Of a stretch of DNA of 44,563 bases, positions 3,173-38,465 are shown one piece after another. Numbering within the stretch: position 1 is the stretch's first letter; each line of letters begins with the position of its first letter. This DNA is from Escherichia phage vB-Eco-KMB14. The notes below the pieces were generated by a model. The model worked only from the letters and a program-made list of their open reading frames with translations. It searched no databases and was not told the DNA's origin. The DNA lies in the sequence record OR424384.1. One strand, given 5' to 3'. The translations under genes and the position numbers were made by a program.

Positions 3173-5800
3173 ATGCAAGACCTACACGCTATTCAACTTC
3201 AACTTGAAGAAGAAATGTTTAACGGAGGTATCCGTCGCTTTGAAGCGGACCAACAACGCCAGATTGCATCCGGTAATGAATCCGACACGGCATGGAATCG
3301 CCGCTTATTGTCTGAGTTAATCGCGCCAATGGCTGAAGGCATTCAGGCATACAAGGAAGAGTATGAAGGTAAAAGAGGCCGTGCACCGCGTGCATTAGCT
3401 TTCATTAACTGCGTAGAAAACGAAGTGGCAGCATATATCACGATGAAAATCGTTATGGATATGCTGAACACGGATGTAACCTTGCAGGCTATAGCCATGA
3501 ATGTAGCTGACCGCATTGAGGACCAAGTACGTTTTAGCAAGCTGGAAGGTCACGCCGCCAAATACTTTGAGAAAGTTAAGAAGTCACTTAAGGCAAGTAA
3601 GACTAAATCATATCGCCATGCGCACAACGTAGCGGTCGTGGCTGAGAAGTCAGTAGCTGACCGTGACGCTGATTTCTCTCGCTGGGAGGCGTGGCCTAAA
3701 GATACCTTGCTACAAATCGGTATGACCTTGCTAGAAATACTGGAAAATAGTGTATTCTTCAATGGTCAGCCTGTCTTTCTTCGCACCTTGCGCACTAATG
3801 GTGGCAAGCATGGCGTTTACTACTTACAGACTAGCGAACACGTGGGTGAATGGATAACTGCATTTAAAGAGCACGTAGCTCAGCTGAGTCCAGCCTATGC
3901 GCCTTGCGTTATTCCTCCTCGTCCGTGGGTTTCTCCGTTTAATGGTGGCTTCCATACCGAGAAAGTGGCGAGTCGTATTCGTCTGGTTAAAGGAAACCGC
4001 GAGCACGTCCGCAAGCTGACCAAAAAGCAAATGCCAGCGGTTTACAAGGCTGTTAACGCTTTGCAGGCGACTAAGTGGCAGGTTAATAAAGAGGTTTTGC
4101 AGGTAGTAGAGGACGTTATCCGTCTCGACCTTGGTTATGGTGTGCCTTCCTTTAAACCGCTCATCGACCGTGAGAACAAGCCAGCTAATCCAGTGCCGTT
4201 AGAGTTCCAGCACCTGCGAGGCCGTGAACTTAAAGAGATGCTAACGCCGGAACAATGGCAAGCCTTCATCAACTGGAAAGGCGAATGTACCAAGCTGTAT
4301 ACCGCTGAAACTAAGCGCGGCAGCAAGTCGGCGGCAACCGTTCGTATGGTCGGGCAGGCCCGTAAATACAGCCAGTTTGACGCAATATACTTCGTGTATG
4401 CACTGGATAGCCGCTCACGCGTTTATGCGCAATCTAGCACACTCTCACCGCAATCAAATGACTTAGGCAAGGCTTTACTACGCTTTACCGAAGGGCAGAC
4501 CATAAACAGCACTGAGGCGCTTAAGTGGTTTTTGGTGAACGGGGCAAATAACTGGGGCTGGGATAAGAAAACTTTTGACGTGCGTACCGCTAACGTGCTG
4601 GATGGCGAATTTCAAGACATGTGCCGCGACATTGCAGCCGACCCGCTGACCTTCACTCAATGGGTAAATGCTGATTCCCCTTATGGCTTCCTTGCATGGT
4701 GCTTTGAATATGCGCGTTATCTGGATGCACTGGACGAAGGAACGCAAGACCAATTCATGACGCACCTACCCGTCCATCAAGATGGTAGTTGCTCTGGTAT
4801 CCAGCACTATAGCGCGATGTTACGCGATGAGGTAGGTGCGAAAGCAGTAAACCTTAAGCCTTCTGACTCCCCTCAAGATATTTATGGCGCGGTTGCGCAG
4901 GTTGTTATCCAGAAGAATTACGCCTACATGAATGCAGACGATGCAGTGACTTTCACATCCGGAAGCGTCACACTTACAGGTGCAGAACTGCGTAGCATGG
5001 CTAGTGCGTGGGATATGATAGGAATCACTCGCGGCCTGACCAAAAAGCCCGTAATGACACTACCTTATGGCAGCACACGTCTAACCTGCCGTGAGTCAGT
5101 GATTGATTATATCGTTGATTTAGAAGAAAAAGAGGCCCAACGAGCTATTGCGGAAGGGCGTACCGCCAATCCTGTACATCCTTTTGATAATGACCGTAAG
5201 GACAGCCTGACACCTGGCGCAGCTTATAACTATATGACAGCTTTAATCTGGCCTTCTATTTCGGAAGTGGTTAAAGCTCCTATAGTGGCAATGAAAATGA
5301 TTCGTCAGCTTGCCCGTTTCGCAGCTAAAAGGAATGAAGGCTTAGAGTATACCTTGCCTACTGGCTTCATCTTGCAACAAAAGATTATGGCTACTGATAT
5401 GCTCCGCGTATCCACTTGCCTGATGGGAGAAATCAAGATGAGTCTACAGATTGAAACGGACGTAGTGGATGAAACGGCTATGATGGGCGCTGCTGCTCCT
5501 AACTTTGTGCATGGTCATGATGCCAGTCACCTTATCTTAACAGTCTGCGACCTTGTTGATAAAGGGATTACATCTATCGCAGTCATTCATGATTCTTTCG
5601 GTACTCACGCAGGCCGTACAGCCGATCTTCGTGATAGCTTAAGGGCAGAAATGGTGAAGATGTATCAAGGCCGTAATGCCCTGCAAAGCCTGTTAGATGA
5701 GCATGAAGAACGCTGGTTAGTAGACACCGGAATCCAAGTGCCAGAGCAAGGAGAGTTTGACCTTAACGAAATCTTAGTATCTGACTATTGCTTCGCATAA
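3173..5800 (+). CDS. T7-like single-subunit DNA-dependent RNA polymerase (875 aa)
   Basis: Size and motifs typical of T7 RNAP (HDSFGT motif C, PYGS region, C-terminal ...FA); RBS ctaggag. Confidence 0.95.
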
Positions 5801-5808
5801 TATTAATA

Positions 5809-5839
5809 GGCCATTCCTTCGGGAGTGGCCTTTTCTTTT
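5809..5839 (+). terminator. Rho-independent terminator after the RNAP gene (9-bp stem, UUCG tetraloop, T-run)
   Basis: ggccattcc-ttcg-ggagtggcc followed by ttttctttt. Confidence 0.55.
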
Positions 5840-5891
5840 ACCTACTACCGGTAACATTTCATTAACATAAAGTGTCTCACATGTGAGACTT

Positions 5892-5911
5892 ATTTACCGG
5901 ACACTATAGGA
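5892..5911 (+). promoter_or_regulatory. Phage-RNAP promoter (ATTTACCGGACACTATAGGA)
   Basis: Consensus match; first of a twin pair downstream of the RNAP gene. Confidence 0.5.
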
Positions 5912-6072
5912 TAGCCGTCGGAGACGGGAAAGAAAGGGAAGATAAAGGATATAAAGGAAGTAATAGGTATTAAAGGTTATATAGGTTATCTAGGAATACC
6001 TATTACCTTCTTCTTTCCTCTTATTACCACTTAGAGGAAGGGCAGAGCTAGGTTGTCTCACATGTGAGACTT

Positions 6073-6093
6073 ATTTACCGGACAGTATAGATA
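6073..6093 (+). promoter_or_regulatory. Phage-RNAP promoter variant (ATTTACCGGACAGTATAGATA)
   Basis: One substitution in the conserved core (CAGTATAG); second of the twin pair. Confidence 0.35.
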
Positions 6094-6120
6094 AGACTAA
6101 CTTACTTTGGAGATTTAACC

Positions 6121-6249
6121 ATGCGTAACTTTGAGAAGATGACCCGTAAAGCTAACCGTTTTGACATGGAAGAAGGGCAGAAGAAAGGCAAGAAGCTGAA
6201 TAAACCTGTCCGTGACCGTGCATCTAAACGCGCTGCGTGGGAGTTCTAA
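6121..6249 (+). CDS. gp1.1-like small basic protein (42 aa), not in the ORF track
   Basis: Translation MRNFEKMTRKANRFDMEEGQKKGKKLNKPVRDRASKRAAWEF resembles T7 gene 1.1 in sequence, length and position; RBS ggag. Confidence 0.7.
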   Translation: MRNFEKMTRKANRFDMEEGQKKGKKLNKPVRDRASKRAAWEF

Positions 6250-6252
6250 GTT

Positions 6253-8241
6253 ATGGCTATTATTCAGAATGTACCGTGTCCTGCTTGCCAAAAGAACGGA
6301 CATGATATTACTGGCAATCATTTAATGATCTTTGACGACGGGGCAGGGTACTGTAACCGTGGTCACTTCCATGATAACGGTAAACCTTATTACCACAAGC
6401 CGGAAGGTGGCATCGAGATAACCGAGTTACCTATTACTGGCAATATCAAATATACACCTTCTCAATTCAAAGAAATGGAGAAGGAAGGGAAGATAAGCGA
6501 CCCTAAGCTACGCGCCATCGCACTTGGTGGTATGCGTATGAAAGACCGTTGGGAGGTTATGAATGAGCAAGAAAGGGCAGACCAAGAAGCAGAGTGGAAA
6601 CTTGATGTTGAATGGTTTCTCACGCTTAAGCGTAAGAACCTTGTATCCCGTCACATTCGAGGTGACATCGCAGCAATGTACGATGTGCGCGTTGGACACG
6701 ATGAAGAGGGAAGAGTCAACCGTCACTATTATCCACGATATGAAAAGGGTGTGTTTGTTGGAGCAAAATGCCGGACGTTGCCGAAGGATTTTAAGTTCGG
6801 ACACCTAGGTAAACTCTTTGGTATGCAAGACCTTTTCGGTATGAACACTTTGTCTCACGTGTTAGACAAGGGGAGACGAAAGGATTGCTTGCTTATTGTA
6901 GGCGGTGAACTTGATGCACTAGCAGCGCAGCAGATGCTCCTTGATTCTGCCAAAGGTACTAAGTGGGAAGGTCAGCCATACCATGTATGGTCTGTCAATA
7001 AAGGTGAGTCTTGCCTTGAAGAGATAGTGCAAAACCGTGAGCACATAGCCCAATTCAAGAAGATTATATGGGGCTTTGATGGCGACGAGGTGGGGCAGAA
7101 GCAGAACCAACAAGCTGCTCGCCTGTTTCCTGGCAAATCCTACATCCTCGAATATCCATCTGGTTGCAAAGATGCTAACAAGGCATTGATGGCTGGCAAG
7201 GCTAAAGAGTTTGTAGATGCATGGTTTAATGCCAAGTCATCTGATGAAGTCTTTGGTAGCCAGATTAAATCTATCGCATCTCAAAGGGATAAGCTCAAGG
7301 CTGCACGTCCAGAGCAAGGACTATCATGGCCTTGGCCTAAGCTGAACAAGGTAACGCTAGGTATTCGTAAGAACCAACTTATCATTGTAGGCGCAGGCTC
7401 TGGTGTAGGTAAGACTGAGTTCCTTCGTGAAGTAGTTAAGCACCTCATTGAAGAACACGGTGAATCTGTAGGCATCATTTCTACAGAAGACCCGATGGTC
7501 AAGGTGTCCCGTGCTTTTATCGGCAAGTGGATTGATAAGCGTATTGAGTTACCGCCAACCAACGACCCGAAAGAAGATGGATACCGTGAGGTGTTCGACT
7601 ACACCGAGGAAGAGGCTAACGCCGCCATTGATTATGTAGCTGATACAGGTAAGCTGTTTGTAGCTGACCTAGAGGGTGACTATTCGATGGAAAAGGTAGA
7701 GCAAACTTGCCTAGAGTTTGAGGCTATGGGCATTTCTAATATCATCATTGATAACTTAACGGGGATTAAATTAGATGAGCGTGCTTTTGGTGGGAAGGTT
7801 GGTGCACTTGATGAATGCGTCAAGCGGATTGGTACTATCAAAGACCGACACCCGGTTACTATATTCCTTGTATCACACCTTACACGTCCTCCGGCAAACC
7901 GTACCCAACACGAAGAAGGTGGCGAGGTTATCCTTTCTGACTTCCGAGGTTCAGGCGCTATCGGATTCTGGGCATCTTACGCCTTGGGGATTGAGCGTAA
8001 TACAAGAGCTGAAACGCTTGATGAACGGACTACCACGTACATCTCATGTGTCAAAGACCGCGACCAAGGTATCTACACTGGAACCAAGGTCATGCTTAAG
8101 GGTGACATTCAAACCGGACGTTTAATGGAACCACAAGCCCGTACTAAGTCATTTGATACAGGTGAAGCAAGGCAACAAGAAGTGCCGGATTTACCGGACA
8201 CTATAGAAGAGACAACTTTTGACGATGAACAGGAGTTTTAA
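6253..8241 (+). CDS. DNA primase/helicase (T7 gp4-like, 662 aa) with acidic C-terminal tail ending in Phe
   Basis: N-terminal Cys4 zinc ribbon (CPACQ...CNRGH), Walker A GAGSGVGKT, C-terminus ...TTFDDEQEF. Confidence 0.95.
   Translation: MAIIQNVPCPACQKNGHDITGNHLMIFDDGAGYCNRGHFHDNGKPYYHKPEGGIEITELPITGNIKYTPSQFKEMEKEGKISDPKLRAIALGGMRMKDRWEVMNEQERADQEAEWKLDVEWFLTLKRKNLVSRHIRGDIAAMYDVRVGHDEEGRVNRHYYPRYEKGVFVGAKCRTLPKDFKFGHLGKLFGMQDLFGMNTLSHVLDKGRRKDCLLIVGGELDALAAQQMLLDSAKGTKWEGQPYHVWSVNKGESCLEEIVQNREHIAQFKKIIWGFDGDEVGQKQNQQAARLFPGKSYILEYPSGCKDANKALMAGKAKEFVDAWFNAKSSDEVFGSQIKSIASQRDKLKAARPEQGLSWPWPKLNKVTLGIRKNQLIIVGAGSGVGKTEFLREVVKHLIEEHGESVGIISTEDPMVKVSRAFIGKWIDKRIELPPTNDPKEDGYREVFDYTEEEANAAIDYVADTGKLFVADLEGDYSMEKVEQTCLEFEAMGISNIIIDNLTGIKLDERAFGGKVGALDECVKRIGTIKDRHPVTIFLVSHLTRPPANRTQHEEGGEVILSDFRGSGAIGFWASYALGIERNTRAETLDERTTTYISCVKDRDQGIYTGTKVMLKGDIQTGRLMEPQARTKSFDTGEARQQEVPDLPDTIEETTFDDEQEF
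8189..8209 (+). promoter_or_regulatory. Phage-RNAP promoter embedded in the 3' end of the primase/helicase gene
   Basis: ATTTACCGGACACTATAGAAG consensus match. Confidence 0.5.
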
Positions 8242-8402
8242 TGGAAATTATTAAACCAGTATTGAATATCGGTATTGAGATCCTATTCATGCTTGTGATC
8301 GCAGATTATGCTGCACGATATGGCTTCAAGAAAGCAGTGAAACTTATCGTTGCATCTGGTTTTATGATGTCAATGTTCTTTATTGTAACACGCCTTATCT
8401 AG
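8241..8402 (+). CDS. Small hydrophobic membrane protein (53 aa), not in the ORF track
   Basis: ATG overlaps the primase stop; RBS aggag; translation MEIIKPVLNIGIEILFMLVIADYAARYGFKKAVKLIVASGFMMSMFFIVTRLI. Confidence 0.45.
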   Translation: MEIIKPVLNIGIEILFMLVIADYAARYGFKKAVKLIVASGFMMSMFFIVTRLI

Positions 8403-8415
8403 TGTATTTATCAGG

Positions 8416-8446
8416 GCTTGTCTCACATGTGAGACAGGCTCTTATT
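8416..8446 (+). terminator. Conserved palindrome hairpin (GTCTCACATGTGAGAC core) followed by a T-rich tract
   Basis: gcttgtctcacatgtgagacaggc then tcttatt; one of seven copies of the same palindrome. Confidence 0.45.
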
Positions 8447-8474
8447 AAGTACATTAAATAACTGGAGATTGATT

Positions 8475-9387: not shown

Positions 9388-9553
9388 ACATAGTCTTAGA
9401 ATGTTCGATGGTCATGAAGACCTGCAAGCCAAGATTACTAACCAAGCCTTCCTGTTCGCACAGTTAACTATGGCTGAGGCCAAGAAGAATAGTCTCACTC
9501 GTGAACAGGTTATCAAGGAAAGTGAAGTGAAACGTAAGATTCGCAGTCGATAA
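9377..9553 (+). CDS. Small hypothetical protein (58 aa), not in the ORF track
   Basis: ATG overlaps the end of the preceding ORF; the ORF ends just before a terminator-like hairpin. Confidence 0.35.
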   Translation: MQNKHSLRMFDGHEDLQAKITNQAFLFAQLTMAEAKKNSLTREQVIKESEVKRKIRSR

Positions 9554-9560
9554 GTCAAGG

Positions 9561-9590
9561 GTTGTCTCACGTGTGAGACAGCCTTTTATC
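9561..9590 (+). terminator. Conserved palindrome hairpin (GTCTCACGTGTGAGAC) plus T-run; rho-independent terminator-like
   Basis: gttgtctcacgtgtgagacagcc followed by ttttatc. Confidence 0.5.
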
Positions 9591-9610
9591 ATGTTGATTG
9601 GAGGTGCATT

Positions 9611-12456: not shown

Positions 12457-12572
12457 TGGATAGGCTTGACATTGTTTACCTATTCTTCACTTTCTTTCTT
12501 GTATTTCTTATGATTGCTTGTTACGGAAGTATGCAGGTAAATATACCTGATGAAGAGGAAGGATACGACTGA
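12456..12572 (+). CDS. Small membrane protein (38 aa), not in the ORF track
   Basis: ATG overlaps the DNAP stop (tgATGg); hydrophobic core IVYLFFTFFLVFLMIACYG. Confidence 0.35.
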   Translation: MDRLDIVYLFFTFFLVFLMIACYGSMQVNIPDEEEGYD

Positions 12573-12630
12573 GTTATACTCAAGGTCACTTACGAGTGGC
12601 CTTTATGGATAACTTAACTAAGGAAATATT

Positions 12631-12891
12631 ATGATTAAATACACTGCTTATCAGTTAACTAAAGACCATAAGATAGGTATTGAGGTTAAGGCTTGGGAGC
12701 GAGGTCATATCTCTGGAGTAATAGAGGTGCGTTCCAAGGAAGGTATGATGATTAGAAGACACTTTAGTTTCGCTAAATCTACTTGTAAGCATTTAACAGA
12801 GGAACAATTCTTACATCATATTATTAACAATATTAAAGCTATCCAGCCTTATGCCAAGCAAGTTGTAGGTAATGTCACAGTAGTACATTGA
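12631..12891 (+). CDS. Hypothetical protein (86 aa)
   Basis: RBS aaggaa; its last 21 nt are part of the duplicated 105-bp unit. Confidence 0.6.
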   Translation: MIKYTAYQLTKDHKIGIEVKAWERGHISGVIEVRSKEGMMIRRHFSFAKSTCKHLTEEQFLHHIINNIKAIQPYAKQVVGNVTVVH

Positions 12892-12911
12892 TTTACTGGA
12901 CACTATAGAAG
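12891..12911 (+). promoter_or_regulatory. Phage-RNAP promoter (ATTTACTGGACACTATAGAAG), copy 1 of the duplicated unit
   Basis: Exact consensus. Confidence 0.7.
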
Positions 12912-13082
12912 GAAAGCCTAGATAATCTAGGTTTATAAGGTAGTATAGGTAATTAAGTAAATATAGGAGATATAAGCTATAGGTTCTGCCGTTATGGCTG
13001 GTATGTCTTCTATTGGTAGTATGTTTACAGGCAGCGGCTGCTGCACCGCTGCCTGTAAACATAATGTCACAGTAGTACATTG

Positions 13083-13103
13083 ATTTACTGGACACTATAG
13101 AAG
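13083..13103 (+). promoter_or_regulatory. Phage-RNAP promoter, copy 2 of the duplicated unit, driving the 13170 gene
   Basis: Exact consensus; followed by the leader and RBS ataggaga. Confidence 0.7.
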
Positions 13104-13169
13104 GAAAGCCTAGATAATCTAGGTTTATAAGGTAGTATAGGTAATTAAGTAAATATAGGAGATATAAAC

Positions 13170-14744: not shown

Positions 14745-14776
14745 AGTCTCACGTGTGAGACAAATCGGTGTCCGGT

Positions 14777-14797
14777 ATTTACTGGACACTATAGAAG
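14777..14797 (+). promoter_or_regulatory. Phage-RNAP promoter (ATTTACTGGACACTATAGAAG)
   Basis: Exact consensus, immediately downstream of the palindrome hairpin. Confidence 0.7.
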
Positions 14798-28361: not shown

Positions 28362-31309
28362 TGGCAATTGAGCGACAAGCAGTACAAGGTCTGCCACAAG
28401 TGCAGGCCACTTCTCCTAATGTCATGACCTTTGCACCTCAGCAAGTTGGAGGTGTGGAGGCTGGCGTAGCTTCTACCTCCGGTAGTCGATTTATCGAAGA
28501 CCTTATTCGAGCAGCCAGTAGTGTAGCTGATGTTACCACGGGTATCCTTAATCAGAAGATTGAGGAGGATAAGGTTGTTCAAATGGAACGGGCATATAAT
28601 GGATTAATGCCCTCTGAGGATGCAACTCGTGGTGGCGCTCGTGCTAACATGCTTGTCAAAGCTCAACTGCTAGCTAATGATGAAGCAGCACGAATGAAAG
28701 ACATGGCTACTCGTTTCCAAGGAACGGATGACGAGTGGACACAACTTATGGTTGACTCTCGTAATGAGATGCAGAATAAGCTGTTCCAGCAATACCCTGA
28801 GTTGCAAGGTGACAAAGATACTATGCGTATGGTCACTAATGTCTTCCAAGAACAGCAGCCTCAGATTTGGGCTACACGAACCCAGCATAAACTTGACCGT
28901 GAACAAGCAGACCGTGAGGATACCTTTGACGGGCGAGTGGCTTCTACTTGGGATTCTAATATTGACCCTGAAGCCTCTGGCTATGCTTTACAGGAACGAA
29001 TCCGCGAAGGTCTTACTCAAGGATTACTACCTGAACAGATGCACAAGAAGTTAGTCCAGCGAGCAATTTCACTTGCACAAGGCGGTGATGTTAGCATGGC
29101 TGAAGCCCTGAAGTATGTGAAGGACGATAAGGGTGTTTCTGTTTATGCTAAGAATCCACAGCTTATCACAGCCATCACTAGTGGTAATGCAGTTTGGGCT
29201 AGGAATAATGTAGCTGATGTAACTCGTATGTCTTTCGAAGTTAAAGAATCATACCTTGCAGGTGATTTAACTGATGAAGAATTGTTGGAACGAGCACAGC
29301 ACATTAATAATCTGACAGGTAACTCTGTCTTCTCTAACCCAGAACTAGAGGCACTGATGCGCCAACGAGCTAAGCAGAATGCAGAGCTAGGTGCAATGCA
29401 GGATATGCGCCGTGAGCTTTACTCCGACCGCCTGACTGGCTTCCAAGGTAAGACTGATAAAGAGAAGAAGGCTTACATTGATGTTATCAAACAAGATAGC
29501 CAACTTTATGCAGACCAGCAAATCAAACAACGTGGCTTGGACCCTTACAGTCAAGAGGCTGAAGCTATTCGTGGTGCAGTGGAAGTGCAGCGCCTACAAT
29601 TCATGAACTCCAAAGGCTTAGTGGATGATACCTTTGAGTCTCGTATCAAAGCCATGGAATCTATGCTATCTCCTGAGCACTTTGCCAAGGGCGAACCACA
29701 AGAGTTGATGACTATTCGCCAGTTGTGGGAACAGTTGCCAGAAGAGAGCCGAGGTGTCTTTGGTGACACGGTGAATGGCTACATGGATAACTACAACACT
29801 GCACTACAAATGGGAGAGACACCTTTGCAGGCTGCAAGGTTTGCGCGTGAAGCACAGCAGAAATTCTCTCGTACTGAGAAGGAAACCAAGAAGTTCAACT
29901 CAGCTATTGGAGATGCACTGGATGAGGTATCTGGTGCTGGCTGGTTCGATGGTAAAACCGAAGTGTCAGACTTAGGTAAAGCTATTGCAGAAGAGGAGTT
30001 ACGAGCTAAGGCTAATATGCTGTGGTCTAGTGGTATGCGTAACATGGATTCCATCAAGAAGGCTTTAATTACTTGGGGCAATAAACGCTACACTCAAACA
30101 GAGGATGCAAAGACTTCCGGTGGCTATTTCATTAAAGGTGATTACACTTCTGCATCTGATATGCTTATGTCAGTTGGGAAAGGCGTAAATCCTACCGATG
30201 TACCTCTGGCGCTTGGTAGGTATGTAGAAACACAGATGCCAGAATTGAAGAAGGAGCTTCAAGAGTGGGAAACTAAAGATGATATATACATTGATTACAA
30301 TGAACAGAAAGGTACTTTCGTGATTCGTGCTGGTGCAGCAGGTCGCCCTCTTTCTGGAGTAATCCCTGTAACCTCTTTAGATACCACTTCACTACTAGAT
30401 TCTGCCTATCAGAAGAAAGTAGAGGAACGAGATAAAGGCGAGTATGTTCACCCTTATCGTACAGATATTGGTGCACAAGAGCCTATGCCAGCTAAACCAA
30501 CTGCCAAAGATATTGGTAAATTTGGACTAGCTAACTTCCTCATGTCTTCTGCTTTTGCTTCTGGTGAGAATCTGCCTTCTAACTTCGAGATTAACTATCG
30601 AGGTAATATGCAACAATTCTATGACAAGCTAGCTATGGATGAGAATAAAGATAAAGTTGGCTTTAATAAGGCAACTGGAACCTTTACTCCATATAAAGAT
30701 GCTCACGGTGAGTCTATCGGTTACGGTCATTTCTTAACGGAAGAAGAGAAGCGAAACGGGTATATTAAGATTGGTGATGAACTAGTTCCCTATCGAGGGT
30801 CTATGTCTCAGCTTACAGAGAGCAAGGCTCGCGCTCTTATGGAGCAAGATGCCAAGAAGCATGTGCCTCCTACTCGTGACTGGAAGATTCCGTTTGACCA
30901 GATGCATCCTGCACAGCAACGTGGCTTGCTGGATTTAACCTACAATTTAGGTAAAGGTGGAATCCAGAACTCACCGCGTGCTCTTGCTGCATTCAAAGCT
31001 GGTAAGCTTACGGAAGGCTTTATCGAAATGCTGGGCACTGCATCAAGTGAAGGTAAGCGTATCCCTGGTCTACTGAAGCGACGCGCTGAGGCATACAATA
31101 TGGCATCTGCTGGTGGTGTGCCTAAGATTACCGAAGTGGAGACTCGTGAAGATGGCTCCATGTGGGTTAGGTTTGGTGGACCTATGCCAGCAGGTTCTGT
31201 CTCGGCATGGATTCATAAACGTATTGGCGCGGATGGTTGGTATCAGGTTTATGAGGCTGCACCTACCAAGTTAGCTAAAGGTTCTAAGGTAGGTAAATTT
31301 AAGTTGTAG
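28361..31309 (+). CDS. Internal virion protein B with C-terminal lysozyme-like (T4-lysozyme/GH24-type) domain, 982 aa
   Basis: C-terminal segment YKDAHGESIGYGH...LLDLTYNLGKGG resembles the catalytic region of T4-type lysozymes. Confidence 0.75.
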   Translation: MAIERQAVQGLPQVQATSPNVMTFAPQQVGGVEAGVASTSGSRFIEDLIRAASSVADVTTGILNQKIEEDKVVQMERAYNGLMPSEDATRGGARANMLVKAQLLANDEAARMKDMATRFQGTDDEWTQLMVDSRNEMQNKLFQQYPELQGDKDTMRMVTNVFQEQQPQIWATRTQHKLDREQADREDTFDGRVASTWDSNIDPEASGYALQERIREGLTQGLLPEQMHKKLVQRAISLAQGGDVSMAEALKYVKDDKGVSVYAKNPQLITAITSGNAVWARNNVADVTRMSFEVKESYLAGDLTDEELLERAQHINNLTGNSVFSNPELEALMRQRAKQNAELGAMQDMRRELYSDRLTGFQGKTDKEKKAYIDVIKQDSQLYADQQIKQRGLDPYSQEAEAIRGAVEVQRLQFMNSKGLVDDTFESRIKAMESMLSPEHFAKGEPQELMTIRQLWEQLPEESRGVFGDTVNGYMDNYNTALQMGETPLQAARFAREAQQKFSRTEKETKKFNSAIGDALDEVSGAGWFDGKTEVSDLGKAIAEEELRAKANMLWSSGMRNMDSIKKALITWGNKRYTQTEDAKTSGGYFIKGDYTSASDMLMSVGKGVNPTDVPLALGRYVETQMPELKKELQEWETKDDIYIDYNEQKGTFVIRAGAAGRPLSGVIPVTSLDTTSLLDSAYQKKVEERDKGEYVHPYRTDIGAQEPMPAKPTAKDIGKFGLANFLMSSAFASGENLPSNFEINYRGNMQQFYDKLAMDENKDKVGFNKATGTFTPYKDAHGESIGYGHFLTEEEKRNGYIKIGDELVPYRGSMSQLTESKARALMEQDAKKHVPPTRDWKIPFDQMHPAQQRGLLDLTYNLGKGGIQNSPRALAAFKAGKLTEGFIEMLGTASSEGKRIPGLLKRRAEAYNMASAGGVPKITEVETREDGSMWVRFGGPMPAGSVSAWIHKRIGADGWYQVYEAAPTKLAKGSKVGKFKL

Positions 31310-31321
31310 TATCTAACTCAA

Positions 31322-31350
31322 GGCTTGTCTCACATGTGAGACAGGTCTTT
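31322..31350 (+). terminator. Conserved palindrome hairpin (GTCTCACATGTGAGAC) plus T-rich tract
   Basis: gcttgtctcacatgtgagacaggtc followed by tttat. Confidence 0.45.
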
Positions 31351-31373
31351 ATGATAGGCACTATGGAGGAATT

Positions 31374-35848: not shown

Positions 35849-36131
35849 ACATGCAGCTACAGAGGATGAGGTTGGCATTCTGCATGGTGCTATTACCAAA
35901 ATCTTCAATAAAAAAGCACAGGCAATACTGGACACTATAGAAGAAGACCCTGATGCAGCATTACATTTAGTGTCTGGTAAGGATATTGGTGCGATGTGTA
36001 AGTGGGTTCTTGATAACGGCATTACCGCCACACCTGCTGCACAGCAGGAAGAGTCCAAGTTATCTAAGCGCCTCAAGGCTATCCGAGAGGCATCCAGTGG
36101 TAAGATAATTCAATTCACTAAGGAGGATTGA
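35832..36131 (+). CDS. Putative terminase small subunit (about 99 aa, GTG start)
   Basis: GTG at 35832 follows RBS ggaggga; lies directly upstream of and overlapping the large terminase. Confidence 0.5.
   Translation: MSVHNKHAATEDEVGILHGAITKIFNKKAQAILDTIEEDPDAALHLVSGKDIGAMCKWVLDNGITATPAAQQEESKLSKRLKAIREASSGKIIQFTKED
35923..35943 (+). promoter_or_regulatory. Phage-RNAP promoter-like sequence embedded in the small terminase gene (CAATACTGGACACTATAGAAG)
   Basis: Core conserved; the -17 to -13 region diverges. Confidence 0.35.
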
Positions 36132-38029
36132 TGGCTAAGGCAAGAGAATCACAAGCGGAGGCTCTTGCCAGATGGGAGATGCTACAGGAGTTACAGCAGG
36201 CCTTTCCTTACACAGCGGAAGGTTTGCTTCTCTTTGCAGATACAGTTATTCATAACTTAATTGCAGGCAACCCTCATCTGATTCGTATGCAGGCGGATAT
36301 CTTGAAGTTCCTATTTTACGGACACAAGTACCGCCTCATCGAAGCGCCTCGTGGTATCGCTAAGACAACACTATCAGCAATCTATACGGTATTCCGTATT
36401 ATTCATGAACCGCATAAGCGTATCATGGTTGTGTCCCAAAACGCCAAGCGAGCAGAGGAAATCGCAGGTTGGGTAGTTAAAATCTTCCGTGGCTTAGACT
36501 TTCTTGAGTTTATGCTGCCGGATATCTACGCTGGGGACCGTGCATCCGTTAAGGCGTTTGAGATTCATTACACCCTACGTGGTAGTGATAAGTCTCCTTC
36601 TGTATCCTGTTACTCAATCGAAGCAGGTATGCAGGGTGCTCGTGCTGATATTATTCTAGCGGATGACGTAGAGTCGATGCAGAATGCTCGTACGGCAGCG
36701 GGCCGTGCCTTGCTTGAGGAACTGACTAAGGAGTTTGAATCTATCAACCAGTTTGGGGATATCATTTACCTTGGTACACCTCAGAACGTAAACTCTATCT
36801 ACAACAACCTACCTGCTCGTGGTTACTCTGTTCGTATCTGGACTGCGCGTTACCCTTCAGTAGAGCAAGAGCAATGTTATGGCGACTTCCTTGCACCTAT
36901 GATTGTTCAAGATATGAAGGACAACCCAGCACTTCGCTCAGGGTACGGGTTGGATGGTAATAGTGGTGCACCTTGTGCCCCTGAAATGTATGATGATGAA
37001 GTCCTGATTGAGAAGGAAATCTCTCAGGGTGCTGCTAAGTTCCAGCTTCAGTTCATGCTTAACACTCGCATGATGGATGCTGACAGATACCCATTACGCC
37101 TGAACAATCTAATCTTCACCTCGTTTGGTACAGAGGAAGTCCCTGTGATGCCTACGTGGAGTAATGATTCCATAAACATCATTGGTGATGCACCTAAGTA
37201 TGGTAACAAGCCTACGGATTTCATGTACAGACCTGTAGCTCGCCCATACGAATGGGGTGCTGTCTCCCGCAAGATTATGTATATTGACCCTGCGGGTGGT
37301 GGTAAGAACGGAGATGAGACGGGTGTAGCCATCGTATTCCTGCACGGCACATTCATTTATGTGTATCAGTGCTTTGGTGTACCTGGCGGATACCGAGAGT
37401 CGTCCCTGAATCGCATTGTGCAGGCCGCAAAGCAGGCGGGTGTTAAAGAGGTATTCATTGAGAAGAACTTTGGTCATGGCGCGTTTGAGGCGGTAATTAA
37501 GCCGTACTTTGAACGAGAGTGGCCTGTAACTCTGGAAGAGGATTACGCCACCGGACAGAAAGAATTGCGTATCATTGAGACGCTGGAGCCGCTCATGGCA
37601 GCCCATAGGCTTATCTTCAATGCAGAGATGGTGAAGTCAGACTTTGAGTCGGTACAGCACTATCCGCTTGAACTACGCATGTCCTACAGTCTTTTCAATC
37701 AAATGTCGAACATAACGATTGAGAAGAACAGCCTCCGGCACGATGACCGCCTAGACGCCCTGTATGGCGCTATACGGCAATTAACTTCTCAGATAGACTA
37801 TGACGAGGTTACACGGATTAATCGCCTCAGAGCGCAGGAGATGCGAGATTACATCCATGCTATGAACACACCTCATCTACGCAGGGCAATGCTATATGGG
37901 GATTACGGTACTGAGCGAAGAGTGACCAACACTTCCGTAGCGATGCAGCAGCGAGTTTACGGGCAGAACTACCGAAATAAATCGGCAAGCAGAAATACAC
38001 TTTCTGCAAGGATTTCAAGGACTTATTAA
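36128..38029 (+). CDS. Terminase large subunit (633 aa)
   Basis: Walker A-like PRGIAKTT; size and position as T7 gp19; RBS aaggagg. Confidence 0.9.
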   Translation: MMAKARESQAEALARWEMLQELQQAFPYTAEGLLLFADTVIHNLIAGNPHLIRMQADILKFLFYGHKYRLIEAPRGIAKTTLSAIYTVFRIIHEPHKRIMVVSQNAKRAEEIAGWVVKIFRGLDFLEFMLPDIYAGDRASVKAFEIHYTLRGSDKSPSVSCYSIEAGMQGARADIILADDVESMQNARTAAGRALLEELTKEFESINQFGDIIYLGTPQNVNSIYNNLPARGYSVRIWTARYPSVEQEQCYGDFLAPMIVQDMKDNPALRSGYGLDGNSGAPCAPEMYDDEVLIEKEISQGAAKFQLQFMLNTRMMDADRYPLRLNNLIFTSFGTEEVPVMPTWSNDSINIIGDAPKYGNKPTDFMYRPVARPYEWGAVSRKIMYIDPAGGGKNGDETGVAIVFLHGTFIYVYQCFGVPGGYRESSLNRIVQAAKQAGVKEVFIEKNFGHGAFEAVIKPYFEREWPVTLEEDYATGQKELRIIETLEPLMAAHRLIFNAEMVKSDFESVQHYPLELRMSYSLFNQMSNITIEKNSLRHDDRLDALYGAIRQLTSQIDYDEVTRINRLRAQEMRDYIHAMNTPHLRRAMLYGDYGTERRVTNTSVAMQQRVYGQNYRNKSASRNTLSARISRTY

Positions 38030-38048
38030 TTACTGGACACTATAGAAG
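38028..38048 (+). promoter_or_regulatory. Phage-RNAP promoter after the terminase gene
   Basis: AATTACTGGACACTATAGAAG; its first 24 transcribed nt resemble the leader of the 12891 promoter. Confidence 0.7.
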
Positions 38049-38186
38049 GAAGGCCCAGATAATAAGAGAAAATAATAGGTAATATATAGGTTAACCTAGG
38101 TTATATAGATATGCCTTAGTATGGGTGTACTCCTGTACACCCTATTCATTACTACCTTACTATATTTACATAATAGGAGAGAGACA

Positions 38187-38465
38187 ATGGCTAATGATTA
38201 TAGTAGTCAACCATTAACAGGTAAGTCTAAGAGAAAGCAGGTACAACCTGTAAGTGAAGAACTAATGCTTCCGGTAATCAAAAAAGAGGAAGCTAGTAAG
38301 AAAAGCAATGTCATTAATGATGCCACCAAATCAGGTAAACAGAAAGGGGCCATGGTGTGCCTTGAAGTGGAAGGTGGTGTATTGAAGATTGCTATCGCGG
38401 TTGATGGCAAAGAAGATTCAGAGTGGAAGTTAGTAACAGTGGAACCAGCTGTTAACCCAGTTTAA
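38187..38465 (+). CDS. Small hypothetical protein, paralog 1 (92 aa)
   Basis: ATG at 38187 follows RBS aggaga; shares the SGKQKGAMVxLE block with the next ORF. Confidence 0.6.
   Translation: MANDYSSQPLTGKSKRKQVQPVSEELMLPVIKKEEASKKSNVINDATKSGKQKGAMVCLEVEGGVLKIAIAVDGKEDSEWKLVTVEPAVNPV

Follow-up and report, generated by a model that had tools for sequence, protein, structure and literature searches.

A candidate transcription-primed replication origin between the RNA polymerase gene and gene 1.1 of a K1-5/SP6-group phage

Where does DNA replication begin in phages of the K1-5 and SP6 type? For T7, a transcription-dependent origin following the RNA polymerase gene is textbook knowledge. To our knowledge, the replication origin of K1-5, K1E, and SP6-type phages has never been mapped. 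Phages of this kind are therapy candidates, and the RNA polymerase of SP6 is in standard laboratory use. Our literature search, outside which lay the genome papers of SP6 (Dobbins 2004) and K1-5 (Scholl 2004), found nothing on an SP6-group origin. Here, we analyze the 320 bases (positions 5801-6120, hereafter the spacer) between the RNA polymerase gene and the gene 1.1 homolog of Escherichia phage vB-Eco-KMB14 (sequence record OR424384.1), with the whole stretch of 44,563 nucleotides (the window) as context. The spacer is the K1-5/SP6-group counterpart of the control region between genes 1 and 1.1 of T7. We put at about even the chance that it both serves as the primary, transcription-primed origin and starts middle transcription; we infer this function, which would make the spacer a new member or variant of the T7-type origin, from its position and anatomy.

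The position of the spacer is defined by the following features:
3173-5800, + strand: phage single-subunit RNA polymerase gene, 875 aa (PHROG 414, E 5e-290).
6109-6112, + strand: Shine-Dalgarno sequence GGAG ahead of the gene 1.1 homolog.
6121-6249, + strand: gene 1.1 homolog, 42 aa (PHROG 2490).
6253-8241, + strand: primase/helicase gene (PHROG 239, E 2e-186).

Over the 1.4 kb around the spacer, identity to many Vectrevirus genomes (K1-5, K1E, AAPEc6, and others; Autographiviridae, Molineuxvirinae) is 92-97%, and on this similarity the window is assigned to Vectrevirus, the K1-5/K1E group. Its RNA polymerase, the product of the last early gene, shares 86% amino-acid identity with that of SP6, and the 42-aa open reading frame matches T7 gp1.1 with 56% identity over 41 residues (E 1e-12). 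Because an RNA polymerase gene and a true gp1.1 homolog flank it, the spacer lies at the site where T7 has promoter phi1.1A, the RNase III site R1.1, promoter phi1.1B, and the primary origin. An earlier reading made from the letters and open reading frames alone (the original prediction) had likened the region to the T7 primary origin by position, and the homology of both flanking genes bears this out. All the elements that it named are found, at most a few bases from where it put them, and all are beyond what chance would give. In the T7 annotation, phi1.1A is at 5848 and phi1.1B at 5923 of the gene 1/gene 1.1 spacer; the two are the primary replication origins of T7, and a phage promoter is essential in each T7 origin (PMC8373140). 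Besides the flanking genes, the window and T7 share two tandem rightward phage promoters, an AT-rich stretch with short repeats, and a hairpin just upstream of the second promoter.

Phage promoters have been published for SP6 and K1-5, and those of the spacer, together with the palindromes that precede them, are:
5874-5889, strandless: palindrome copy 1, GTCTCAC-AT-GTGAGAC, at -35 to -20 of P1.
5892-5909, + strand: phage promoter P1, ATTTACCGGACACTATAG, with +1 at G 5909; exact match to the pattern.
6055-6070, strandless: palindrome copy 2, at -35 to -20 of P2.
6073-6090, + strand: phage promoter P2, ATTTACCGGACAGTATAG, with +1 at G 6090; one mismatch.

The pattern used in the scan was the P1 sequence of the original prediction. 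Against an expectation of 0.03, it matches the window at 13 sites, each on the + strand, and the SP6/K1-5-type promoters found in this way carry the 18-nt consensus ATTTA-NNN-GACACTATAG, have G at +1, and are oriented as the genes; the 18-mer of P1 recurs at 8189. As judged by their sequence matches, P1 and P2 would direct phage transcription toward the primase/helicase gene, which is the first replication gene that they serve. Each promoter belongs to a unit made of a perfect 16-bp palindrome (GTCTCACATGTGAGAC), then TT, then the 18-nt promoter, and the two units form a direct repeat (5873-5909 and 6054-6090). Of the two near-identical 41-bp units proposed originally, both exist, but 41 was slightly generous, as the repeat spans 37 nt with 36/37 identical. 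Such near-perfect identity is peculiar to the present isolate: TCG is inserted between palindrome 2 and promoter 2 in 12/12 other Vectrevirus sequences aligned. The two promoters are spaced by 181 nt, and the 146 nt between the units are AT-rich and strand-asymmetric.

The mismatch in P2 is a change from C to G at -5 (6085, CAGTATAG). It had been noticed before as a core substitution, but it is no chance mutation, being conserved in 13/13 Vectrevirus sequences and present in a Proteus phage too. P2 of SP6 and of Klebsiella phages deviates in another way, with T at -1 (CACTATTG), a further lineage has the core CTATGG, and the lineage L041 has the consensus core. Since G at -5 is the consensus of the Era103 promoters, related polymerases do read promoters of this kind. 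A P2 that departs from P1 or from the consensus is found in most lineages examined, and such a rule fits a tuned, probably weaker promoter. The promoters at 5892, 6073, and 8189 share ACCGG, while those from 12891 on have ACTGG, a split that resembles the one between class II and class III promoters in T7.

Directly downstream of P1, the G+C content reaches its minimum (26.7% at 5940-5999, compared with ~45% for the genome) with a GC skew of +0.9. P1 is thus directed into an AT-rich zone, as expected for a T7-type origin, whereas P2 comes after it. The zone and its surroundings, in which there is no open reading frame between P1 and P2, contain the following elements:
5915-5927, + strand: small palindrome CCGTCGGAGACGG, hairpin CCGTC-GGA-GACGG, at +7 to +19 of the P1 transcript.
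5926-5998, + strand: array of seven ~9.5-bp AGG direct repeats, giving a purine-rich transcript.
5954-6012, strandless: dyad with arms AAGGAAGTAATAGGTATT and AATACCTATTACCTTCTT and a 23-nt apex, centered in the AT-rich minimum.
6001-6045, + strand: pyrimidine-rich region with ~10-bp repeats (TATTACCTCT), the run itself about 6001-6033.

The AGG triplets start at 5935, 5946, 5955, 5965, 5974, 5983, and 5992 (spacings 11, 9, 10, 9, 9, and 9), Tandem Repeats Finder reports a period of 9, and the density of [AT]AGG[TA] has its genome maximum here. Relatives have 5-9 AGG(T) units with the same period, mostly AGGT in SP6, Klebsiella, and Proteus phages, and KAW1A4500 carries an extra whole 10-bp unit. 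What had been described as a 33-nt purine run is this array and is not pure, with several T's, yet the 40-mer with the highest purine content in the genome lies here (5921-5960, 36/40). Over its first 60 nt, the P1 transcript is 80% purine (22 G, 4 C), and among the 13 leaders listed (12 promoters and the pattern match at 35940) that of P1 has the top purine fraction and the strongest excess of G over C; the equivalent leader in SP6 and in a Klebsiella phage is at or near the top. The inverted repeat and the matching pyrimidine run that had also been pointed out are both present, the former as 18-nt arms (5954-5971 and 5995-6012) that are 89% complementary, the latter pairing with the AGG half of the dyad and locally with AGAGGAAGG. 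Likewise, the small palindrome is found where it was placed, and its stem covaries: the third pair is G-C in 25 sequences, T-A in 4, A-T in 5 (from two unrelated lineages), and C-G in 1, and is never broken, a pattern that argues well for a genuine hairpin, whether in RNA or in single-stranded DNA. The T7-type triplet GTC is confined to the palindromes and the small hairpin and is missing from the AT-rich core, the triplet being that of T7 and possibly not that of the present primase.

Upstream of the first unit, the spacer begins with two further elements:
5808-5839, + strand: early intrinsic terminator TE, from the terminator scan.
5840-5872, + strand: conserved block of ~30 nt, ACCTACTACCGGTAACATTTCATTAACATAAAGT, between TE and palindrome 1.

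The terminator had been given as 5809-5839 and is confirmed, with the stem placed at 5808-5831 by the scan. It has 10 pairs, 6 of them G-C, in the hairpin AGGCCATTCC-TTCG-GGAGTGGCCT, followed by TTTTCTTTT. The stem varies in sequence and keeps its pairing in SP6, BP12B, Klebsiella, Proteus, and Era103 phages as well as in L039 and pKV-BS375, and the first five retain the TTCG/TCCG loop and the T-run. TE thus has the G+C-rich hairpin, the T-run, and the compensatory stem changes of an intrinsic (rho-independent) terminator, and it is annotated as a terminator in relatives. The adjoining block is nearly invariant in Vectrevirus, Zindervirus (SP6), and the K44-type Klebsiella phages, and absent in Proteus, pKV-BS375, L039, and L041. 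A scan found no sigma-70 promoter in the spacer, the block included, and no match to an IHF site or a DnaA box was seen there by eye. Far upstream of TE, a variant phage promoter (1851-1868) precedes the polymerase gene; it ends in CACTATAAGA, with A replacing the usual G at +1, is conserved in SP6 (2104), and may be a weak promoter reading through the early region and TE.

Two roles are most likely for the spacer. In the first, it marks the boundary between transcription by the host polymerase and by the phage polymerase: TE would end the early transcripts, and P1 and P2 would start the middle transcripts for gp1.1 and the primase/helicase. In the second, that of a probable origin, the phage RNA polymerase, starting at P1 (5909), would transcribe the small 5' hairpin and enter the AT-rich AGG array, where the purine-rich RNA would form an unusually stable hybrid with the pyrimidine template, the duplex being opened; from its base composition, the P1 transcript should favor a persistent RNA:DNA hybrid. 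The phage DNA polymerase would then extend the P1 RNA rightward, and the primase/helicase would load on the displaced, hairpin-prone + strand to give a leftward fork. P2 would be mainly a messenger promoter and a back-up origin promoter. RNA priming, the persistent hybrid, helicase loading, and this division of labor between P1 and P2 are the steps that we infer. Observed, on the other hand, are the elements, how they are conserved and covary, and the position that the spacer shares with the T7 region. A promoter directed into a purine-rich transcript with an excess of G over C is also what the spacer has in common with R-loop-primed origins (ColE1 RNA II, and T7 ori plasmids that need loss of RNase HI), and for T7 origin plasmids an R-loop mechanism has been put forward (PMC8373140).

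The whole arrangement is conserved. By blastn, the spacer has ~70% identity over most of its length to Zindervirus (SP6, UAB_Phi78, BP12B) and to unclassified Klebsiella Molineuxvirinae. Global alignment gives 238/320 identical positions (74%) with SP6, compared with 160 +/- 7 for a shuffled partner, 232 with a Klebsiella phage, and 184 with a Proteus Acadevirus. Of the four-fold synonymous sites in the polymerase and primase genes on either side, just 41-55% match SP6, so the spacer evolves much more slowly than neutral sites and is under strong purifying selection. The order of the parts (TE, palindrome, P1, small hairpin, AGG(T) array, AT-rich center, pyrimidine run, palindrome 2 in some lineages, P2, and gp1.1) is kept in Zindervirus, several lineages of Klebsiella Molineuxvirinae, the Proteus Acadevirus, and IMG/VR contigs. 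A looser version is found in Era103 from Erwinia, and Vibrio phage AS51 (Colwellvirinae) has twin promoters after a terminator. A control region behind the polymerase gene thus dates back to the ancestor that the T7 supergroup has in common.

Several points nevertheless weigh against an origin. Each element can also be read in terms of gene expression, as a terminator, class II promoters, and a structured leader. The AT-rich zone lies between the promoters, whereas in T7, the only mapped model, it follows the second one; the T7-like promoters and AT-rich region named in the original prediction are thus both present, with the promoters directed rightward, but they are arranged differently. Near 6 kb, there is an upward step in GC skew in the window, SP6, and T7, but the early/middle gene boundary lies there too, and the step is absent in Era103 and Proteus; GC skew, being confounded by the gene-class boundary, was rejected as an origin marker. 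The ~9.5 bp period of the repeats and a 6-bp insertion at the apex in one Klebsiella phage break strict helical phasing. There are further differences from T7: the promoters are 181 nt apart instead of 75 nt, the early terminator is directly upstream of them instead of after gene 1.3, and the AGG array, the covarying 5' hairpin, and the 16-bp palindromes have no equivalent in T7. Finally, origin activity is proven for T7, while the present spacer is a candidate.

Possible, though less probable than an origin, is that the spacer is purely a control region for gene expression, with replication starting elsewhere or at many promoters. TE would stop host transcription, two class II promoters would give gp1.1 and the primase/helicase a strong, graded start, and the 146-nt P1 leader would set the stability, the processing (for example by RNase III, the role of R1.1 in T7), or the translation of the messenger. 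T7 does have an RNase III hairpin exactly between its twin promoters, and the segment from P1 to P2 folds as a long imperfect hairpin in each lineage (z -1.3 to -5.0), with the indels of relatives at the apex of the hairpin, which is also that of the dyad. The 5' hairpin covaries as an RNA structure would, AGG/TAGGT arrays are present in two other long untranslated leaders, and T7-type RNase III sites are found elsewhere in the genome. The long hairpin, however, lacks the frame ACUCAAGG...GGCCUUUAU common to those sites, and RNAalifold on a MAFFT alignment gave no consensus pairing for it, recovering only the small hairpin and the palindrome; the failure is attributable to the repeats, which align ambiguously. 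Rfam has no match at the gathering score for the segment, and the sub-threshold microRNA-precursor shapes merely reflect the long hairpin. Conservation, moreover, spans the whole spacer and not just the hairpin. Control of expression is in any case compatible with origin function, because the T7 region does both jobs.

The genome's RNase III-type sites lead to the palindrome of the twin units, which is found well beyond the spacer:
373-388, 6852-6867, 8420-8435, 9564-9579, 14746-14761, and 31327-31342: other copies of the palindrome, GTCTCAC-NN-GTGAGAC.

With those starting at 5874 and 6055, there are 8 matches in the window (at 373, 5874, 6055, 6852, 8420, 9564, 14746, and 31327), against 0.15 expected. 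The original prediction had treated the palindrome as part of a promoter unit or origin, a view that fails, as it is a genome-wide element that elsewhere caps RNase III-type hairpins. Complementary flanks extend the copies at 8420, 9564, and 31327 into hairpins at 8400-8455, 9545-9600, and 31308-31363, all with the frame ACTCAAGG...G(G/T)CTTTAT followed by GAT, and a classical hairpin without the palindrome (12570-12618, site 12581) has the same frame, ACTCAAGG...GGCCTTTAT followed by GAT. All four (8420, 9564, 12581, and 31327) fold like R1.1 of T7, with an upper stem, an internal loop, and a lower stem (z -4.0 to -7.1). They have the ~20 bp hairpin and the frame ACUCAAGG...GGCCUUUAU that define such a site, and are probably RNase III processing sites.

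For comparison, we used the coordinates of the T7 RNase III sites from Dunn and Studier, and the common motif was seen in the sequences at these coordinates. The frame is exact in R0.3, R0.5, R1.1, and R18.5 and varies slightly in R1.3, R4.7, and R6.5. The palindrome-capped hairpins of the window have the frame and the stem and loop shape of the T7 sites, which are R1.1 and nine others; the tips, in contrast, vary from site to site in T7, while one tip sequence is reused throughout the window's genome. A hairpin just ahead of a promoter has precedent in T7, where R1.1 precedes phi1.1B by 19 nt and R4.7 abuts phi4.7. Palindromes 1 and 2 themselves were rejected as RNase III sites: they have no lower stem, the 3' frame is missing, and the RNA around them gains no folding stability over shuffled sequence (z -0.98 and +1.05, respectively), only the 6-bp tip being folded. 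The same lack of a lower stem and of folding beyond that of shuffled sequence is seen for the copies at 14746 and 373. The palindromes of the twin units are therefore bare tips of the hairpin family, placed 2 nt upstream of each promoter. The terminator scan also flags them, but the T-run is the AT-rich end of the promoter and is absent in SP6, Klebsiella, Era103, and Proteus, and they were rejected as terminators.

The dispersed palindrome is widely conserved and changes in a concerted manner. Its copies recur at matching places in SP6 and a Klebsiella phage, and Era103, a Proteus phage, and Vibrio phage AS51 each carry 6-9 of them, T7 having 0; the element, a dispersed hairpin, is thus conserved from E. 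coli phages to Vibrio phages. A copy between TE and P1 is present in every Molineuxvirinae relative examined, and copy 2 is present in Vectrevirus, Zindervirus, and the K44-type Klebsiella phages and absent in Proteus, L039, L041, and the pKV-BS375 group. The arms are GTCTCAC/GTGAGAC in Vectrevirus, Era103, and AS51, GTCCAAC/GTTGGAC in the Klebsiella and Proteus phages, and mostly GTCTAAC/GTTGGAC in SP6. Within each genome, the arms alter together across the copies, which suggests a partner that reads the sequence. The literature search, with the limits given above for the SP6 (Dobbins 2004) and K1-5 (Scholl 2004) papers, found no paper with the palindrome sequences, and the dispersed palindrome, the repeat arrays, and the covarying hairpin may be undescribed.

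Such a partner is the basis of another explanation, which we consider unlikely: that the palindromes, the AGG(T) array, or both are DNA sites for a putative phage protein that controls P1 and P2 or assembles a replication complex in the manner of an iteron-binding initiator. It would account for the single arm sequence per genome and its concerted change between lineages, as well as for the absence of the palindrome from T7. It would also account for the copy inside the primase/helicase gene (6852-6867, ~codon 200), which SP6 and a Klebsiella phage share at that place and whose pairing survives synonymous changes of Ser/Leu codons (TCC..TTG in the Klebsiella phage, TCT..TTG in SP6, and TCT..TTA in the window); a perfect K1-5-type palindrome would make a TGA stop codon there. 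Three copies are at fixed distances upstream of promoters (2, 2, and 15 nt). The last of these, at 14746-14794, consists of the palindrome, a 15-nt spacer (AAATC.G.G....), and a promoter, and its spacing and part of its sequence are kept in SP6 (14255), Klebsiella (21954), Proteus (14585), and even Vibrio AS51 (14843), which belongs to another subfamily. The array, for its part, is one of direct repeats: 7 of them at intervals of 9-11 bp, for a period near 10 bp, with 5-9 in relatives, where whole units are inserted or deleted.

Against this stands, first, the T.G at palindrome pair 4/13 of SP6, in the same orientation in 6/9 copies; it is a wobble pair only in + strand RNA and favors an RNA hairpin over a symmetric DNA site. 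Three copies of the palindrome are, furthermore, clearly tips of T7 RNase III-type RNA hairpins. A simple screen for a phage protein tracking the arm type found 0 window proteins nearer to Era103 than to SP6, and hence no such partner. The repeats, lastly, remained unchanged when promoter specificity changed. This last point was also the reason for rejecting the AGG repeats as partial promoter sites: AGG stays in Vectrevirus, though its promoters went from AGG to ACC/ACT at -12 to -10. In a related and similarly doubtful proposal, SP6-like phages would have "replication promoters" marked by the palindrome or hairpin and a ~9.5-bp TAGGT array, read by a putative phage factor as RNA hairpin or as DNA. 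If true, this factor would couple transcript processing to origin firing, and initiation would depend on an initiator, as opposed to promoters alone in T7.

Very improbable, finally, is that the P1 transcript acts as a small non-coding RNA or sponge, for instance for GGA-binding CsrA or 30S subunits: a GGA (or GAA) loop on a covarying stem, several GGA/AGG motifs ~10 nt apart, and a region free of open reading frames would suit such a role, but Rfam gives no match, the lack of a terminator before P2 leaves no discrete small RNA defined, and in SP6, Klebsiella, and Proteus phages the majority of repeats read AGGT and not GGA, for which reason the CsrA-sponge idea was judged unlikely.

Returning to the transcription-primed origin, the spacer offers a conserved 250-bp candidate with separable parts, namely P1, the 5' hairpin, the repeat array, the palindromes, and P2, which could support replicons driven by SP6 polymerase, like the published T7 ori plasmids. 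Arrays of TAGGT like that of P1 follow only two other promoter positions in the window, 12891/13083, after the DNA polymerase gene, and 38028. WWAGGTWW is 19-fold enriched in these leaders, which were picked after seeing the data. The promoter at 38028 follows the terminase large-subunit gene directly and takes the place held in T7 by phiOR, a known secondary origin (PMC8373140). With its 143-nt untranslated, AT-rich leader, TAGGT repeats very like those of P1, and a hairpin (GGGTGTAC-TCCT-GTACACCC), the region 38028-38187 resembles phiOR in both place and leader and is a candidate secondary origin. The leaders of the T7 origins phiOL and phi1.1B have a different short repeat, CTTAAG/TTAAAG, in their AT-rich stretch. 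At the left end, Era103 and the Proteus phage have a palindrome-plus-promoter unit in the place of phiOL, while no phage promoter follows the palindrome at 373 in the window.

Some smaller observations concern these same regions. At the left end of the window, ~15 copies of CTTAG(T/G), ~10-12 bp apart, occupy 100-330 and 390-450 and resemble the short-repeat arrays beside the terminal repeats of T7-group genomes; ahead of the palindrome at 373 stands ACCTAGCC-ACCTAGCC-TATCCTAGC. HNH homing-endonuclease genes or extra small genes are inserted just past promoter 2 or gp1.1 in relatives (UAB_Phi78 1793-2203, BP12B 1904-2350, and genes 8/8.5 of K1E), making this junction an insertion hot spot. The promoters at 12891/13083 form a second twin arrangement (12872-12975 and 13064-13167), a 192-bp tandem duplication of promoter and TAGGT leader that is single-copy in SP6, and between its copies there is a Cys-rich open reading frame of 29 aa (12994-13083, MAGMSSIGSMFTGSGCCTAACKHNVTVVH).

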